Below, piece by piece: positions 10,612 through 18,202 of a stretch of 64,000 nucleotides of DNA. A program made the position numbers and the translations under genes. This DNA comes from Promethearchaeota archaeon (GTDB lineage Archaea; Asgardarchaeota; Lokiarchaeia; Sigyniarchaeales; SOKP01). The DNA is taken from assembly GCA_016839555.1 (NCBI GenBank), contig JAEOUA010000007.1, forward strand, positions 224,001 to 288,000, written 5' to 3'. How positions within the stretch are numbered: the first letter of the stretch is position 1; the number at the start of each line of letters is the position of its first letter. The notes under the pieces were generated by a model. It was given only the letters and a program-made list of their open reading frames with translations, was not told the DNA's origin and did not search any database.

Positions 10612-11274
10612 CTAAGGACGATTTATTCTCATATAATTTTGAATATATTTTTTAACTTCTTCTGCGGGTTTGATAATTCCAAAATGCCCTTCACATAAAA
10701 TATCTGGTTCTAAATCAAGAAGTTTTTGCATAGATGTTTGGTAATTATTTAAATTTGAACCAAAACTTTCGTAAAATGGTCCATGAATGTCTTGGCCAAA
10801 TAAAACCCTCTTATTATGTATTTCTAATAATATGCTTATCGAGCCGGGAGTATGGCCTGGACTGTGGTAACATTTGAATTCATAATTTCCTAACCTTAAA
10901 ATTTCTACCTCTTTTGAGAATTTTTTTTCCAATTTTATAGGTTTATATTTGGTTCCATACCATTCTGCGGCAGTTTTTTGATCATATCCTTTGTTTTCTA
11001 TTGCTTCCGCATCTAATTCATGAGCATAGAATCTTATTTTAGGGTTAAATTCTTTTAAATTGGAACAAGCTGCTATATGATCAATGTGGCAATGAGTAAT
11101 AATGCAATGAAAGATTTTCTTGGGATCCAATCCTTTTTTTGAAATATCTTTAATCATTGAAAAATTCATTCCGCAATCGATTAATACCAGCCCGTCTTCA
11201 CTATTAGTATCCACTAAATAAACTTCACAACCAGAACTTCCAACAAGATAAACATCCTTTATTATTTCTTTCAT
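10612..11274 (-). CDS. Metallo-beta-lactamase fold hydrolase
   Basis: LIDCG, THCHIDH, PGHTPGS, GQD, CEGH motifs. Confidence 0.88.
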   Translation of the reverse strand: MKEIIKDVYLVGSSGCEVYLVDTNSEDGLVLIDCGMNFSMIKDISKKGLDPKKIFHCIITHCHIDHIAACSNLKEFNPKIRFYAHELDAEAIENKGYDQKTAAEWYGTKYKPIKLEKKFSKEVEILRLGNYEFKCYHSPGHTPGSISILLEIHNKRVLFGQDIHGPFYESFGSNLNNYQTSMQKLLDLEPDILCEGHFGIIKPAEEVKKYIQNYMRINRP

Positions 11275-11339
11275 AATTTTAAATAAAGATGATTATTTCA
11301 TTTATCTCTAGTAATTTTTTAAAATTAACAAAATTAAAA

Positions 11340-12062
11340 TTAATTAAGATATTTCTTTTTTAACTCGTATAATTTATCTGGATAATCTGTATAAATTGCA
11401 TCAACTTTTTGTCCATTAATATTCATTAATAAGATTTTTTTCATCCGAGTACGAGAATTCACTCCCCAAAAAAAGGATTTAAATCCTTTATTAACAACCA
11501 CAGAGAAATTCTCTTTTATGTATTTATTCGCTTTAATGTTAAGGATTTTTATATTTAAATCTTCTAAAGTTTGAAAATCAAGATTATTTTCTTTAATTTT
11601 TGGTATATTATGAGGAACAGTGTGAACAAGCTGTACTGAATTATTTATTCTTCGTAATGCTTTTAAAATTATAAGTCGCGTATCAGTTATAAAAATATTA
11701 TTAAGGAGTGCATATTCTTTTGCTAACTTAATTATTTTTTTTCCTGCGTTTTGACTTCCAATATCAAAACTAAATTTATATTGGTCTGAGGGGTCTAAGC
11801 ATTCAAATACTTCCTTTAATGTGGGTATTTTTCGCTTATCTTCAAATTGAATATCCCTTAATTCTTTAAGTGTTAAATTTTTAATCGCATAATGTTTTTT
11901 CCCTATCTTAAAATAAGGATCATGAAAACAAACTAAAATTTCGTCTTTTGTAAGTCGAATATCCGTTTCAATCCCTGCATTCATCTCAAACGCCATTTTA
12001 AATGATTTGATCGTATTTTCTATACAGTAAGCACTAGCACCTCGATGAGCAAAAATTAACAT
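11340..12062 (-). CDS. Glycerophosphodiester phosphodiesterase (GDPD) family
   Basis: FAHRGAS..ENT, IETDIRLTKD..VCFHD, IPTLKEV, IYTDYP. Confidence 0.88.
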   Translation of the reverse strand: MLIFAHRGASAYCIENTIKSFKMAFEMNAGIETDIRLTKDEILVCFHDPYFKIGKKHYAIKNLTLKELRDIQFEDKRKIPTLKEVFECLDPSDQYKFSFDIGSQNAGKKIIKLAKEYALLNNIFITDTRLIILKALRRINNSVQLVHTVPHNIPKIKENNLDFQTLEDLNIKILNIKANKYIKENFSVVVNKGFKSFFWGVNSRTRMKKILLMNINGQKVDAIYTDYPDKLYELKKKYLN

Positions 12063-12148
12063 ATTTCTGGATAGATTTTTAAGAAAGGTTTTTAAAATTT
12101 ATAATTTTTTCATAATGAAAAAGCTAACTAATTTTTTTATATTCAGAA

Positions 12149-13021
12149 TTGAGAAAAATGGAAAAGAATCACACGAAAACTAAGGATCAAAAAAAGCCAT
12201 TTTCCGAGAGAATTAAAAATTATTTTAAAAATTTGGTGGATTTTAGCTCTTATGACGCTAAAACTATATTTTTCATAATTTTAGTAATTCTCTTAATTGG
12301 AATGTCATTATATTTAGTTTATCTTCTCCTATTTGTGGATAATACAATTTTATATCGATTAGTTGTGGAATGGTTTGTAAATCCCATCTATAGTTTAGGG
12401 TTCTGGGGTGTATTTCTTTTTATTGGGGTAATGGCAATCCAGGGACTACTTATTCCAATCCCTTCAGAAATCGTTTTATTATCTACGGGAATGATTTGGG
12501 GATGGTTATTAGGTGGAATTTACGGAATTATTGGTTCCGTGGCAGCAGGAGTCTTATGTTATTATATAAGTAGAAAAGGAGGAAGACCTCTTGCAGAAAA
12601 ACTTGTTGGAGAATCCGCTATAACAATGGCGGATAATTTTATACATAAATATGGATTTGCAGCGATTCTTATAATGCGCTGCCTTCCTTTTATTGCATTT
12701 GATCCGATCAGCTATGCTTCGGGCATAGTAGATTTAGATGTAAAAAAGTATACGATTGCCACATTTTTAGGCTCTATACCCAGGGCTTTCTTCTATGCAT
12801 TTTTAGGAGCATCTTTAGGAATTACTCCTCCAATTAATTTTGAACAATTACCACTCTCTCAAATACAAGCTCAATCCAATTCTTTTAATATAATACTCTT
12901 GATTATTGCGGTGGTCCTATTAATAATATTTGTAGCATATTATATAACCAGTAAATACTATAAAAAAAAGACTTTAAATAAGGAAAATAATAAAACTTCG
13001 GAAAAAACCAATAACCAATAA
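12149..13021 (+). CDS. VTT/DedA-family (TVP38/TMEM64) membrane protein
   Basis: QGLLIPIPSE, YISRKGGRP, MRCLPFIAFDPISYASG, TFLGSIPR. Confidence 0.85.
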   Translation: MRKMEKNHTKTKDQKKPFSERIKNYFKNLVDFSSYDAKTIFFIILVILLIGMSLYLVYLLLFVDNTILYRLVVEWFVNPIYSLGFWGVFLFIGVMAIQGLLIPIPSEIVLLSTGMIWGWLLGGIYGIIGSVAAGVLCYYISRKGGRPLAEKLVGESAITMADNFIHKYGFAAILIMRCLPFIAFDPISYASGIVDLDVKKYTIATFLGSIPRAFFYAFLGASLGITPPINFEQLPLSQIQAQSNSFNIILLIIAVVLLIIFVAYYITSKYYKKKTLNKENNKTSEKTNNQ

Positions 13022-13158: not shown

Positions 13159-14151
13159 TTATCTTCCACTTATTAAATTTGACTTTTTTTTTACAAGCTT
13201 GGATTTTTCCCATTCAGAGATTACCACAGCAGAAAAGATAAGGCAAAATCCGATAATGAAATAAATGGTTAAAGATTCTTGAAGGAAGAGCCATGCAAGT
13301 AGCATTGCGATAATGGGTTTACTATAAAAAAGTAAAACTCCTCGGGATGGTTCCACTTTATTTATACCTAACGTGTAAAGAATATACGCTACTCCTGTGC
13401 TCATAATACCAAGGTAAAGAAGTAATATTACATCCACTCCAGATATGATTGATATAGGATTAATTATGATTAAATCTAAAAGAAAAAAAGGAATTAAAAA
13501 AATAACTCCAAAAAGAAAACCCCAAAAATTGAATTCCAGTGCTAAATCAAAGTTTTTTATAGAAGAAAATGAATGATCTTCCGAAGATATCGCTTTTTTA
13601 GTAATATAAATACTTAATAGCGTATAAAGCGAATAACCAAACACAGCAAAGAATACAAGTAAATTTCCAATAATTTCTTCAATCTCAAAACTACCAAATT
13701 GAAACTCTGTTATTATGATTAATGCTCCTAAAAAACCAATAATTACTGCAACAAATTTAATTTTCGTCTTACTTTCACCTAATAATAACATTGATCCAAT
13801 ACTTACAATAATAGGATTGGATGCAAGTAATAATGCAGCGGTAGAAGCCTTAGTGAAATTAAGAGCAAAGAAATAAACGGGGGATGCGATAGTTATCCAT
13901 ATAATAGCTGCTCCAATAATTAATTTCCAATGATCACGCAAATATTTTAATGGGTGGATATTTTCTCGGCGAAAATATATCATTATACTAATGATTAATA
14001 CTCCTAAAATAATTCGAAAAAAATGTTGTTGAAGTTTTGAAAAAGAGGTAATAATTTTTGCGGTAATTTCAATAGTTGCAAAGAAAAATATCCCTAAAAA
14101 CATATATAAATATCCAATATTTAGTTTTTCTGTGGATTGCGTGGAAGCCAT
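13159..14151 (-). CDS. DMT/EamA family transporter
   Basis: About 10 TM helices; ALNFTKASTAALL..NPI..LLGE and YLGIMSTGVAY...PIIAMLLAWLFLQE repeats. Confidence 0.85.
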   Translation of the reverse strand: MASTQSTEKLNIGYLYMFLGIFFFATIEITAKIITSFSKLQQHFFRIILGVLIISIMIYFRRENIHPLKYLRDHWKLIIGAAIIWITIASPVYFFALNFTKASTAALLLASNPIIVSIGSMLLLGESKTKIKFVAVIIGFLGALIIITEFQFGSFEIEEIIGNLLVFFAVFGYSLYTLLSIYITKKAISSEDHSFSSIKNFDLALEFNFWGFLFGVIFLIPFFLLDLIIINPISIISGVDVILLLYLGIMSTGVAYILYTLGINKVEPSRGVLLFYSKPIIAMLLAWLFLQESLTIYFIIGFCLIFSAVVISEWEKSKLVKKKSNLISGR

Positions 14152-14401: not shown

Positions 14402-16156
14402 TTGTTAATAATGAATAAAAAAAAAGATAATAAGAATCAAGGGCAAAATAGACCTCAAGACTCAGAAGAATCATTTAAAAAAATAGAAAATAATGAAAAT
14501 ATATTTATTTCAAGCGCTTACAATATTAAACAATTCTTTTTAAAGAGTTCTAAAAAAACATATTCTAATTTTTTTAAAGATTTAGAAATATCTAAAAATC
14601 ATTTCATTACGTTAGAACTCATATATTTAGTCTTTATTGTGATAATTCAAACAATTCTTTTTTACATTTTTAATGTGAATATATTATTAACACTAAATTA
14701 TTTCATAATTTTTCTCGTGCTGAGTATTTTATTCGGATTACTTTTTGGTGGGATATTTATTGATAAGATAAGGGGAAAAAAGACTCCTATTCTTTTAACA
14801 ATTATGTTAATCTCATTAATTATTATTATAGTACAAGTTTTCTTTTTTCAAGTTGAAATAAATTTATTTTCAACTATATTATTAAGTATTAATTATTTTA
14901 TTTCGGGAGTTATTTTTATTTTTTTTTTGGTAGCTTTTATTGAATTTACGACAATCTTGGAAAGAGGAAGGGTATTATCTTATCTTTCATCTGTAATGGG
15001 AATCTTTATCTTTATAAATATTCTATTTATCTCTATTATTTTGATTTTTATCAATTCAATACTTACCTTTGGAATTGCTATTTATTTTCTAAATAAAAAG
15101 CGAAAAATAGAGACACCATTAATATATATACCCGTAGCAAAAAAGGAAAATATAAAAAAAGAAGTCCATTTTTCAATCTTGAAATATATTGCACTATTAG
15201 GATTTTTTGGATTCATCGTAGGTTTAAATATCCCTCTTCGAAACGTTTTTTTCATAAGAAGTGATTGGGATATTTTTTTTTTATTGATATTAGGAATTCT
15301 TTTGGCTAGTATAACATCAATATTTATTGGTTCAATTTTTGATTTATTTGGTAGGAGAACTGTAGTTTCTTCATCTGTATTAATAATAATATTCATAGAT
15401 TTTATTCGAATTTTTACTTCACCAAAACCACTCATAGATCTTGCTTTCTCTGTAATTTGTGCAATCATCTTATTTATTTCTATCCCTCTTTTGATAAGCG
15501 ATATATGTTATAAAGGCTCTTTAGGGAAATTTTTAGCAATAACCTATATCATTAGTCTTTTATTTATTATTTTTGGGGTTTATCTTCGGGGAAATATATT
15601 AAATTTTGGTGTGGATGATCTCACTGAAGAATTAATGTTACATGCCCTTATAAGTATAGCAGCAATTTTTATACTCTTCTTTTTGATAAATAGTAGAGAG
15701 ACTTTAAGCGCTAAAGAACAAAATTGGCCGGAAAATTTAATTCATTTATATATTATTCATACTTCTGGGCTTCTATTGTATGATTATTCATTTAATGATG
15801 AAATTTTAGCGGATTCAGATTTAGCGGCAGGTGGATTGATTGGACTTATTACTATTTTGCAGGAAATAACACGAGAAACTCAAAGAATAAGAGTTATTGA
15901 CCATGGCGGAAAACTAATACTATTTGGGTTTAATTCTTATAAAACTCTTGTGTTTGCTCTGGTGATTTCTGAAGAATTAGTTATCTTAAGGCACAAATTG
16001 AATAATTTTATAAAAGATATAGATAAAAATTATCCCATTGAATCACAAACGCTTTCTGGAATCGATAGAAAATTATGGGAAAAAAGAATTGAACCTATTC
16101 TTTATGATCATTTTGAACGCAAATATTTTGAATTAATAGATTATAAAAATATATAA
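14402..16156 (+). CDS. MFS-fold membrane protein fused to C-terminal longin-like domain
   Basis: About 12 TM helices with two MFS motif-A-like loops (GIFIDKIRGKK, GSIFDLFGRRT). Soluble C-terminus LIHLYIIHTSGLLLYDYSF...DSDLAAGGLIGLITILQEIT...IRVIDHGGKLILF is longin-like. ATG alternative at 14411. Confidence 0.7.
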   Translation: MLIMNKKKDNKNQGQNRPQDSEESFKKIENNENIFISSAYNIKQFFLKSSKKTYSNFFKDLEISKNHFITLELIYLVFIVIIQTILFYIFNVNILLTLNYFIIFLVLSILFGLLFGGIFIDKIRGKKTPILLTIMLISLIIIIVQVFFFQVEINLFSTILLSINYFISGVIFIFFLVAFIEFTTILERGRVLSYLSSVMGIFIFINILFISIILIFINSILTFGIAIYFLNKKRKIETPLIYIPVAKKENIKKEVHFSILKYIALLGFFGFIVGLNIPLRNVFFIRSDWDIFFLLILGILLASITSIFIGSIFDLFGRRTVVSSSVLIIIFIDFIRIFTSPKPLIDLAFSVICAIILFISIPLLISDICYKGSLGKFLAITYIISLLFIIFGVYLRGNILNFGVDDLTEELMLHALISIAAIFILFFLINSRETLSAKEQNWPENLIHLYIIHTSGLLLYDYSFNDEILADSDLAAGGLIGLITILQEITRETQRIRVIDHGGKLILFGFNSYKTLVFALVISEELVILRHKLNNFIKDIDKNYPIESQTLSGIDRKLWEKRIEPILYDHFERKYFELIDYKNI

Positions 16157-16174
16157 GATAAAATACTTAAAAGC

Positions 16175-17281
16175 TTGAAAAGAATAATAATTATCCATTG
16201 GAATAAGAGCACTGGACCAGAAACAATTCTTCAGTATCCTCCTGAAAAAGAAATTTTTCCAAAAGATCTTTTTTTAAAGATATGGACGATGCATGAGTTA
16301 AAGAAAGGGGAAAAAATGGTTGAATATACCTCTGAAGAATTAGGCAATAGATTTATATCAGTAATCCAAAAATTTGAAGGAGAAATTTATTTTTTAGTGT
16401 TAGTGTATGATAAATCGATTGATAATATCGATGATATCATTAATGTGGATCCGGATCTTCTCGCAAATATTTCAAGGGACTTAATCCAATTAATTAATAC
16501 GAATAAAATTTCAAATGCTATATTTGAAGCTTATAAATCAATTAAAAATTATACAAAGATAGAAAAGGAAGAAAACCTACTAAATTTTTTCAGAGATAAG
16601 ATGAAATATACTATCCTGAAAATTCTTAGAAATGAAGGCGTGATATCAAAAAGAAATCTTAAGAAAATATTAAAAAATCAATATGGATTTTCAACACTAA
16701 ATCTTGATTTAATTTTAATTTCGTTTATTCGTGAAAACCTAATTGTAAAAAAATCGATTTTTGGTAATCAAGATTATTATTTTCTAATTAATGATTTATC
16801 TTGCATACGTATTCCCCCAGAAAATATTATAAAATTTTTTGAGAGCATTGAGAATGAAGATAAGAATGAAATTGTTAATAATTACAAAACAGCTTTAATT
16901 CAATTTTTTAAAAATTATGATGTAAATCAACAAGATAATATTGATCTACTATTAATATATTTAGCTAATAAATATGTATCTAGGTTTTTGAAATCATTAA
17001 GATTTACACCAATGCTCATTTCTGATGCTTTAAATATCTTAAATAACAATGAAGCAATTTTAAATGAATTAATTAAAAAAAGTGTTTTATTTGAGGCAAA
17101 GGGGTATGTATTTCTTCTCACAGATATAAGATTTCTAAAATTTTTGCCAATATATCTCTTCAAGCGCTTAAATTTAAGATATAAAGAGGGAAAGATATCT
17201 TTAGATGAATTTTTAGGTCATAATAAATTGATTTTGGAAAAATTCTTACAGTCTAATTATTATAATTATCAAGTTATCTAA
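16175..17281 (+). CDS. uDENN/longin-like N-terminal domain + winged-helix protein (NPRL2-like architecture)
   Basis: N-terminal IIIIHWNKSTGPETILQYPP resembles uDENN/NPR2 starts. KYTILKILRNEGVISKRNLKKIL...LILISFIRENLIVKK is wHTH-like. Starts 18 nt after the previous gene. Confidence 0.55.
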   Translation: MKRIIIIHWNKSTGPETILQYPPEKEIFPKDLFLKIWTMHELKKGEKMVEYTSEELGNRFISVIQKFEGEIYFLVLVYDKSIDNIDDIINVDPDLLANISRDLIQLINTNKISNAIFEAYKSIKNYTKIEKEENLLNFFRDKMKYTILKILRNEGVISKRNLKKILKNQYGFSTLNLDLILISFIRENLIVKKSIFGNQDYYFLINDLSCIRIPPENIIKFFESIENEDKNEIVNNYKTALIQFFKNYDVNQQDNIDLLLIYLANKYVSRFLKSLRFTPMLISDALNILNNNEAILNELIKKSVLFEAKGYVFLLTDIRFLKFLPIYLFKRLNLRYKEGKISLDEFLGHNKLILEKFLQSNYYNYQVI

Positions 17282-17410
17282 TTATTAGAAAGTTATTATA
17301 TAAAATCTTAATTATTATAAGCTTAGGATTTATCTCAAAAATTTTAAATAGGAAAATAATTCATAATTTAAGTAAGTATTATTTTAATCAATAAACAAGG
17401 TGAATAAAAA

Positions 17411-18202
17411 ATAACTCTAATATTTGGACCTTTAAATATTCTAGATTATACTCAAGGATCCTTTAGCTTATTATTTTCATTAATTTCTGTTGTACTTGGA
17501 GTCAGTATTCTCTCAAAATATTTTAAATTTAAACAAAGAATTTATATTTTTATGGGATTAACTTGGATTGGGATGGCTACTCCATGGTTTCCTGATTCCA
17601 TCAGTTTTCTTATAATATTGATAGCGAGAATAACTATGCCAATTGAAATATATATACTTATAGGAACAACTCTACTACCCATCCTTTTGTTAATTTGGAT
17701 GGCCGCATTCAGTGAATTACTTTATAAAGATAAACAGAAGAAAATTCTTATGATTTTTGCGATTATTGCTATTATTTATGAATTGATATTTTTTGTGTTG
17801 TTTTTTTTGGATGCAAAAGCATATATTGGAGAATATCAGAGATATTTTCAAGTAGAATTTAAAGAATTTATTACATTATTTGATCTAGCTTTACTTGTTA
17901 TCGTTTTAATTACGGGTATAATATTCGCTAAAAAATCTTTATCCTCATTAGACGAAAAAATCCATTTAAAAGGAAGATTCCTTCTGGCAGCATTTATATC
18001 TTTTTGTATAGGAGCCGCATTAGATGCTTCAACAGGCTTAATCTTTACAGATCTATTCGGGATTTCTAATACAAATCCGTTTATTTCAATTTTCGTTGTT
18101 ATAATTCGAATAATTCTTATTTCATCGGCTTTTGAATTTTATATAGGCTTTATGCTTCCTAAATGGGTTGAAAATCTAATGATAAAATCTAGAGAAGAGT
18201 AA
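17411..18202 (+). CDS. Seven-TM membrane protein (receptor/sensor-like); probable non-canonical ATA start
   Basis: Frame is open upstream of ATG 17552 to a TAA at 17405 and adds a TM helix (GSFSLLFSLISVVLGVSILSKYF). An SD-like AGGTGA (17398-17403) lies 7 nt before ATA 17411. Confidence 0.65.
   Translation: MTLIFGPLNILDYTQGSFSLLFSLISVVLGVSILSKYFKFKQRIYIFMGLTWIGMATPWFPDSISFLIILIARITMPIEIYILIGTTLLPILLLIWMAAFSELLYKDKQKKILMIFAIIAIIYELIFFVLFFLDAKAYIGEYQRYFQVEFKEFITLFDLALLVIVLITGIIFAKKSLSSLDEKIHLKGRFLLAAFISFCIGAALDASTGLIFTDLFGISNTNPFISIFVVIIRIILISSAFEFYIGFMLPKWVENLMIKSREE

Follow-up and report, generated by a model that had tools for sequence, protein, structure and literature searches.

Why should a membrane protein with the fold of a solute transporter end in a longin domain, and why should the gene of a second longin protein follow it so closely? 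The question is raised by a locus of Promethearchaeota archaeon (GenBank assembly GCA_016839555.1; 3.74 Mb in 12 contigs, about 27% GC). The locus lies in a stretch of 64,000 nucleotides (nt), positions 224,001 to 288,000 of contig JAEOUA010000007.1 (G000:C6:224001-288000 in our labelling), which is referred to as the window. Gene 1 encodes a protein of the major facilitator superfamily (MFS) type with a longin domain at its C-terminus, and gene 2 encodes a soluble protein composed of a longin domain and two winged helices. The folds, the motifs and the strict conservation of the operon in one orthogroup are shown, and the two genes are best explained as a conserved operon for a membrane-tethered longin module. 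Both genes match hundreds of Asgard records and therefore are not chance open reading frames (ORFs). The closest relatives in the database belong to organisms named Promethearchaeota or Lokiarchaeota archaeon. A preliminary description of the window had placed the two ORFs 18 nt apart; its coordinates are exact, and both ORFs lie on the + strand.

The ORF of gene 1 begins with a TTG at 14402 and encodes 584 residues; the database call (P0121, 581 residues) begins with the ATG at 14411, which is the probable start. Gene 1 is matched over its full length by 33 database clusters, and the fusion of the MFS and longin domains is kept in all 29 homologues that were aligned. About 12 transmembrane (TM) helices, arranged as 6+6 around a central loop, are deduced from the family alignment; hydropathy gives 11 helices plus one that is missed between 217 and 255. 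The loop of TM2-3 contains a motif-A-like GGxxxDKIRGKK with one extra residue, where G109 and D118 are invariant among the 29 sequences. The motif is repeated in the TM8-9 loop as FDxFGRR, with D311 and G314 invariant and R315 nearly so. ILERGR, following TM4, is also invariant in the family. The Pfam model MFS_1 (PF07690) scores 18.1 bits on gene 1, below its cut-off of 33.4, and is matched at E <= 1e-3 by 18 of the 29 family members, with a best E of 1.8e-12. A search of the PDB with the family profile gives a weak match to the MFS protein Qdr2 (E 1.6e-3). The fold of about 12 TM helices with two motif-A-like loops, as originally described, is thus borne out. Membership of the MFS is accepted at the level of the family, and transport itself would be a property predicted from that family. 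The termini of MFS proteins are cytoplasmic, and hence the longin tail is expected at the inner face of the membrane.

The tail, comprising the last 145 or so residues, is the most conserved part of gene 1, and the membrane domain is less conserved. W439, S452-G453, D470-L471, G474-G475, D497-H498-G499, R527 and K529 are its invariant positions, H498 being nearly invariant. When folded together with the alignment, the tail adopts a beta-beta-alpha-beta-beta-beta-alpha-alpha topology with a predicted TM-score (pTM) of 0.76, and its best 50 structural matches are all longin domains. The tail is a generic longin of the SNARE/AP-sigma/TRAPP-like kind. A longin-like domain had been claimed from about nt 15730; its onset is better placed at about 15716.

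Gene 2 begins with MKRIIIIHWNKSTGPETILQYPP, as had been quoted. Its AlphaFold2 model, with a mean confidence (pLDDT) of 79, comprises an N-terminal longin, a first winged helix, a helical linker and a second winged helix, so that the tail of gene 1 and the N-terminus of gene 2 both have the longin fold. The protein matches 351 clusters at E <= 1e-3 in an indexed search, and 147 clusters at the 50% identity level in an exhaustive search. A comparison by Foldseek with NPRL2/NPRL3 and C9orf72-SMCR8 had been suggested. The best full-length Foldseek matches are the NPRL2/NPRL3 chains of GATOR1/SEAC structures (E 1.4e-5 to 3.6e-4, the top match extending over 343 columns), followed by C9orf72-SMCR8, Fuzzy-Inturned, FLCN-FNIP and Lst4. 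An independent structure search of the Atlas returns three unnamed Asgard clusters first, and then NPRL2/Npr2 (PF06218), Inturned and C9orf72.

CodY, in which a sensor domain is joined to a winged helix-turn-helix, is also found among the Foldseek matches. Gene 2 could therefore be thought of as a one-component transcription factor, with the longin as a sensor similar to a GAF domain and DNA-binding winged helices that control the adjacent transporter gene. There is little chance that this is so. The third, or 'recognition', helices of the two winged helices carry net charges of -1.2 and -3.3, and the whole protein is acidic with an isoelectric point of 6.1. The first winged helix is mildly basic overall, with an acidic and hydrophobic third helix, and the third helix of the second one is acidic. 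Furthermore, giant membrane proteins carry members of the family fused to their cytoplasmic ends, NPRL2/NPRL3 and not regulators rank first among the full-length matches, and gene 2 is kept where no transporter is nearby.

A motif of gene 2 adds to the likeness in fold. A study of longins (PMC12290439) defines a GP motif, situated where the beta1-beta2 loop ends or beta2 starts, in NPRL2, FLCN, SMCR8, C9orf72 and some Asgard longins. It is absent from NPRL3, FNIP and longins other than those of GTPase-activating proteins (GAPs). The same source describes W33-D34 of C9orf72, just before G38-P39, as essential. Gene 2 reads W9-N10-K-S-T-G14-P15, where G14-P15 are the first residues of beta2 (E14-21), and the spacing of five from W to G is that of C9orf72. 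W9, G14 and P15 are invariant in 46 gene 2 orthologues. When 45 orthologues and distant paralogues are taken together, W9 is kept in 41 and G14 in 43, with D or N at position 10. The orthologue group, its deep members included, retains P15, and of the GP pair the distant paralogues keep the G only. The start of gene 2 had been likened to that of NPRL2, and it indeed holds the GP motif of GAP-type longins.

The linkage of the two genes was followed through 301 genomes of the phylum. Orthologues of gene 2 occur in all 68 genomes of the window's family and in all seven of the sister family, and weaker paralogues occur in many others. Full-length MFS-longin genes are present in most genomes of the window's family but belong to several subfamilies; the orthogroup of gene 1 is found in only a few genera, and gene 2 throughout the family. 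A gene 1 orthologue lies directly 5' of gene 2 in G000 (the genome of the window), G186, G183, G294, G273 and G168. Three metagenomic contigs, those of P0125, P0128 and P0132, carry the pair as well; that of P0135 represents the G294 locus. In a tree of 45 MFS-longin proteins, all copies adjacent to gene 2 fall into one clade. The clade has 23 rows and a support of 86 in the Shimodaira-Hasegawa-like approximate likelihood ratio test (SH-aLRT), with a core of 20 rows at 99. The copies of known context that have no gene 2 downstream all fall outside it. Four clade members of previously unknown context were looked up, and each is directly followed by a gene 2 orthologue. Altogether, the pair was verified at 14 distinct loci (the window, L003-L006, L020-L022, L025, L043-L046 and G168), with both genes on one strand and 2-85 nt between them; no counterexample was met. 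Three more pairs, deduced from shared contigs, stand outside these 14. The 18-nt spacer of the window contains no oligo-T run. The copies in genus g6 were considered as unlinked gene 1 orthologues and were rejected, as the tree and their context of DUF166 and RIO-like genes assign them to a different subfamily.

Conserved adjacency can also arise without meaning, if gene 1 landed in a variable gap 5' of a conserved gene 2 and was inherited along with it. What lies between the VTT gene and gene 2 does indeed vary, and most genomes have neither gene 1 nor a remnant of it there. Nevertheless, we consider this explanation most improbable. In the deep lineages L025, L043 and L044 the pair is kept while both proteins are only about 29-32% identical to those of the window and the flanking genes are completely different, which argues against mere inherited synteny. 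The gaps of 2-85 nt are thus retained across lineages that have diverged to about 30% identity in both proteins, with VTT/EamA genes as flanks on one side of the divergence and a GTPase-HEAT...PIG-L-actin order on the other. Adjacency is also seen in none of the three paralogous MFS-longin subfamilies, one of which lies beside a DUF166 and a RIO-like gene, another is of the P0145 type, and the third is tandemly duplicated. Among the matches listed, no paralogous MFS-longin gene lies beside a paralogous gene 2-type gene.

A mechanism may be proposed from these features. The 12-TM protein of gene 1 would hold its longin on the cytoplasmic side of the membrane. From the same message, gene 2 would supply a soluble protein of the NPRL2/C9orf72 type, with a longin, two winged helices and a WD/N-x3-GP pocket motif, and without an arginine finger of its own. 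This protein would dock on the cytoplasmic longin of gene 1, most simply as a longin-longin heterodimer of the kind formed by NPRL2-NPRL3, FLCN-FNIP and C9orf72-SMCR8. The pair would then recruit or regulate one of the many small Arf/Rag-like GTPases at the membrane, as a GAP, a guanine nucleotide exchange factor (GEF) or a platform. Gene 1 would serve as an accessory membrane input or anchor plugged into a more general, gene 2-centred system. For the docking on the tail of gene 1 together with the action of the pair on a small GTPase, we infer a probability of about 0.4.

Small GTPase genes are found near gene 2 in relatives. A convergent ORF of about 230 residues beside gene 2 matches the Pfam Arf model (E 1e-12 to 2e-16). 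At 6 of about 20 family loci this GTPase gene adjoins gene 2, either directly or with a 7-TM gene in between. The six include the locus of G186, a genome of the window's genus that has gene 1 there as well. In the window's own genome, homologues of this GTPase lie at C5:598819-599508 and C10:104179-104856. In L025 and L044 the order is a Roc/Arf GTPase-domain protein (515-571 residues in this deep-branching cluster), a protein of about 300 residues, HEAT, MFS-longin, gene 2, PIG-L and actin, all genes being co-directional. The sister family has the same co-directional cluster, the protein of about 300 residues included, and the MFS-longin gene is an optional member of it. The sites of the deep-branching cluster are L025:269-8895 and L044:1-9355, and it is also seen in L018 and L019. 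No assignment was obtained for the protein in question in the L025 operon, where it has 298 residues. Homologues of the triad of GTPase, protein of about 300 residues and HEAT are also clustered in the window's own genome (C10:12085-15973), the GTPase-domain homologue being at C10:14486-15973.

Tethering to the membrane is not peculiar to this locus. Modules of the gene 2 type are fused to the cytoplasmic ends of eight distant giant proteins, about 110 residues after a single TM helix; P0191, P0216, P0227, P0238, P0246 and P0251, all from other organisms, are examples. Within the window's own genome, a gene 2 paralogue at C12:221859-222977 starts 3 nt after the gene of a 1551-residue single-pass protein. 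Likewise, at least seven other polytopic membrane proteins of this genome, of 743, about 365 (five proteins, four of them as two tandem pairs) and 213 residues, end in a longin related to the tail of gene 1. Membrane tethering of longin modules is therefore a recurring design in this organism, and the tandem pairs could be membrane-integral longin heterodimers. The loci concerned are as follows. The gene 2 paralogue (C12:221859-227636, - strand, with its upstream gene) encodes 372 residues and has RWNERVGTE in place of HWNKSTGPE. The 1551-residue protein has a signal or TM helix, one TM helix near its C-terminus and an 80-residue lysine-rich cytoplasmic tail. The tandem pairs (about 370 residues, 5-7 TM helices, longin-ended) are located at C1:101166-103442 and C10:385830-388124, the 743-residue polytopic protein at C4:54335-56566, and the 213-residue protein, which has two TM helices, at C3:97048-97689.

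Several observations weigh against the proposed docking and GTPase regulation. With respect to homology, gene 2 has no match in Pfam, including the NPR2/NPR3 families PF06218 and PF03666, or in NCBIfam, and its family profile finds nothing relevant among all PDB sequences. Its likeness to NPRL2 is one of fold and layout only; the NPRL2-like character claimed in the preliminary description stands for the architecture, as seen by Foldseek and in the Atlas, and falls for sequence homology to NPR2/NPR3. In addition, an alignment of the two longin profiles of gene 1 and gene 2 by hhalign detects no similarity, and so the pairing cannot be argued from paralogy. A complex prediction for the tail of gene 1 with the longin of gene 2 (residues 1-130) scored 0.01, below the mark and with no controls, and counts neither way.

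With respect to catalysis, the arginine finger is present in NPRL2, FLCN and SMCR8, and absent in C9orf72, FNIP and NPRL3. Gene 2 has no conserved arginine at the expected site, which we take from R78 of NPRL2 with a register that is not set on coordinates; its beta4-beta5 loop reads KFEGE. Its longin has a single invariant arginine, R3, which lies at the opposite end of beta1 and does not persist in wider alignments. The equivalent loop of gene 1 carries a basic residue that deep relatives have not kept. GAP chemistry of the eukaryotic type is consequently not evident from the sequences of the pair. Gene 2 looks like the non-arginine, C9orf72-like member of such a pair, or a non-catalytic platform.

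With respect to distribution, a gene 1 orthologue stands beside gene 2 in only 6 of the approximately 75 sampled genomes with gene 2, leaving about 69 without it. G135, of the same genus, has the VTT, EamA, gene 2, 7-TM and GTPase genes and no gene 1. Gene 2 therefore has a function independent of gene 1, and the latter looks like an accessory, an input or anchor of a system centred on gene 2. In the genomes that lack gene 1, the gaps upstream of gene 2 showed no decayed copy of it. Adjacency, whose conservation across Asgard genomes had been set as a check, thus holds at every one of the 14 loci of the orthogroup, and more than 90% of the sampled genomes with gene 2 have no gene 1 beside it. 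The tree of the MFS-longin proteins comes from a quick search of its 45 sequences, with SH-aLRT support only. As to the GTPase, the window contains no such gene, as was stated originally, and of the 64 Arf-model matches of the genome, the nearest one on this contig is separated from gene 1 by about 41 kb. A 3.7-Mb genome with 64 GTPase genes should have some of them as neighbours by chance, and a gene order that related genomes have in common does not count as independent evidence.

Alternatively, the same pathway can proceed with no longin-longin heterodimer. The tail of gene 1 would dock a small GTPase or autoregulate the transporter, and gene 2 would be a general adaptor that serves 7-TM and giant surface proteins via its winged helices or its longin. 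The longin SRX of SR-alpha, which binds SR-beta, provides a model for a tail docking a GTPase. This alternative accounts for the presence of gene 2 without gene 1 in most genomes, often followed there by a 7-TM protein and the convergent GTPase. It also accounts for the gene 2-type modules that are fused to, or encoded downstream of, single-pass giant proteins with no longin tail, and for two longin profiles that are unrelated in sequence. Nevertheless, gene 1 of this orthogroup is never found without gene 2 directly downstream (14 loci), for which a direct partnership is the simplest explanation, and the GP-motif longins of eukaryotes act as heterodimers with a second longin (PMC12290439). 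We regard the alternative as unlikely, and the heterodimer is retained as the preferred reading.

The preliminary description went further and took the pair as a candidate transceptor. In such a system the substrate binding or conformational cycle of the MFS domain would be passed to the longin pair, which would switch an Arf/Rag-like GTPase in an analogue of nutrient sensing by SLC38A9, Ragulator and GATOR. A transporter fold and a signalling-type domain do share one polypeptide in all the aligned homologues. Both motif-A loops, which gate the conformational cycle in MFS proteins, are preserved, the layout of gene 2 is NPRL2-like, and GTPase genes lie in the same operon in L025 and L044. However, transport and sensing are putative here. 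The presence of similar longin tails on at least seven other membrane proteins that are not MFS proteins points to anchoring rather than to a coupling specific for transport, and the membrane domain is less conserved than the tail. Moreover, Liu et al. (bioRxiv 10.1101/2020.10.19.343400) report that no TOR-type kinase was found in Asgard archaea. A transceptor is therefore decidedly unlikely, and that lysosomal nutrient sensing descended from this system would be speculation.

How the pair differs from known systems may be set out more precisely. With NPRL2/NPRL3 (Npr2/Npr3 of yeast; GATOR1/SEACIT), gene 2 shares the fold and layout but not the match to PF06218/PF03666, the conserved arginine finger or a DEPDC5 counterpart. 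The longin proposed as its partner forms the end of a transporter-fold protein and is not a paralogous soluble subunit, and the TM-scores are low (0.2-0.4) because the domain arrangement differs. Gene 2 is built like NPR2/NPR3 but is not a member by sequence, and by analogy its role may be that of the non-catalytic, or C9orf72-like, half of such a complex. Compared with C9orf72-SMCR8 (CSW) and FLCN-FNIP, the C-terminal part of gene 2 consists of winged helices and not of a DENN domain. No arginine-bearing partner similar to SMCR8 or FLCN was identified here. A possible likeness to SLC38A9-Ragulator-Rag, implying no homology, is that of a solute-carrier fold with a cytoplasmic element that, at a membrane, engages longin/roadblock regulators of GTPases. 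In SLC38A9 the fold is that of an amino-acid transporter and the N-terminal tail is unstructured, whereas here an MFS domain carries a longin. Sec22b, Ykt6 and VAMP7 have the longin N-terminal to a SNARE motif and one TM helix or lipid anchor, and SRX of SR-alpha is recruited through SR-beta; in gene 1 the longin is C-terminal to a 12-TM MFS domain.

NPRL2-like longin proteins of Asgard archaea have been published. The parts available of bioRxiv 10.1101/2020.10.19.343400 and PMC12290439 describe such NPRL2-like or GP-motif longins as soluble proteins and as fusions to GTPases or to two-component domains. Asgard roadblock and longin structures have been solved, including the longin domain of a Loki Roadblock-Longin protein (PDB 8yqg; PMC10933270). 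The latter paper remarks that in MK-D1 the GTPase genes do not, as a rule, share an operon with a longin or roadblock gene. Neither a transporter-longin fusion, nor its operon with an NPRL2-like gene, nor a membrane-anchored longin of Asgard archaea was found described in the literature covered, which excludes most subscription papers.

The features of the locus are collected in the table.

Table. Positions of the two genes, their domains and the adjacent genes in the window.
Feature	Position	Strand	Basis or remark
EamA-family transporter gene	13159..14151	-	PF00892, E 1.2e-33; divergent from gene 1
Gene 1, MFS-family 12-TM protein with C-terminal longin	14402..16156	+	584 aa; 18 nt before gene 2
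Gene 1, membrane domain	14579..15700	+	family alignment, hydropathy, MFS_1 matches, weak Qdr2 profile match
Gene 1, longin domain	15716..16153	+	residues ~436-581 of P0121
Spacer between gene 1 and gene 2, 18 nt	16157..16174	+	read from sequence
Gene 2, soluble protein with longin and two winged helices, NPRL2-like layout	16175..17281	+	368 aa; P0001
Gene 2, longin domain	16175..16549	+	residues 1-125
Gene 2, W9-N10-x3-G14-P15 motif in beta1/beta2 turn	16199..16219	+	alignments and motif definition of PMC12290439
Gene 2, winged helix 1	16583..16813	+	residues 137-213
Gene 2, winged helix 2	16931..17143	+	residues 253-323; model and charge analysis
Multi-TM (~7-TM) protein	17408..18202	+	large paralogous family; listed ORF start 17552

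The neighbours agree with what had been described, a divergent EamA gene upstream and a multi-TM protein, recognized by hydropathy, downstream. Further upstream in the window, a VTT/DedA gene precedes the EamA gene. Relatives, too, repeatedly have an EamA gene upstream of the pair, but in most cases it is on the same strand, and its identity is only about 28%. The lactamase_B, GDPD and VTT/DedA genes at 10612-13021 form a syntenic block with gene 2 across the family (relatives L001, L008, L011-L013 and L016). The segment from VTT to gene 2 is a variable slot, being empty or occupied by EamA, a hydrolase, small ORFs or MFS-longin. Two conserved small ORFs, of about 54 residues with ...SIWQLSKIITRY and about 84 residues with ...W..EEFD.L..., precede gene 1 orthologues in several relatives (L020:3351-3918, L021:3278-3884, L023:3736-3900, L045:3623-3874 and L046:631-882), and both are missing from the 250-nt promoter region of gene 1 in the window. 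A protein of about 195 residues with no Pfam match adjoins gene 2 orthologues in several lineages, with or without gene 1 (L004:5169-5756, L005:854-1444, L022:6931-7515, L043:7067-7639 and L019:7040-7621). It does not occur in the window.

In several relatives the 7-TM gene is found 3' of gene 2. The first TM helix of the protein in the window (LNILDYTQGSFSLLFSLISVVLGVSILSKYFKFK...) is encoded in frame within 17408-17551 and aligns with the N-termini of homologues. This segment, 5' of the listed ORF, contains no ATG, GTG or TTG, and, as read from the sequence, a non-canonical codon, for example ATA 17411 or ATT 17438, is the probable start of the gene. A scan of the protein against Pfam and NCBIfam gives no match. 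The family, of about 250 residues, is expanded to more than 20 paralogues in this 3.7-Mb genome, with 25-43% identity to one reference member. Paralogues are located, for instance, at C1:32271, C7:293815 and 294607 (tandem), C7:77947, C4:142904, C5:24025, and C10:454355 and 455210 (tandem). DNA of the window is also found in metagenome runs from marine sediment and marsh; no RNA run was among those listed.

Asgard genomes contain dozens of small GTPases and longin/roadblock proteins, and this locus bears on their recruitment to membranes and on their inputs. Published work offers few operons linking Asgard GTPases with longin or roadblock proteins, and the operon here is strictly conserved. 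It ties a GP-motif, NPRL2-like protein to a longin-bearing membrane protein of a transporter family, to which the deep relatives add a GTPase-domain protein, HEAT and actin. The evolutionary side of the matter is of importance to eukaryogenesis; its anatomy and linkage stand on solid ground, and the functions proposed are inferred. Even with no interaction between the two proteins, the locus would represent a family of transporter-longin fusions not described before. Should the pair be a transceptor, the coupling of a solute carrier to a longin regulator of GTPases, which is the logic of lysosomal nutrient sensing, would already be present in Asgard archaea. If the interaction is true, this would be the first concrete case in archaea of a pair of longin regulators tethered to the membrane, and plausibly a forerunner of the eukaryotic longin GAP complexes that are placed on membranes next to transporters.

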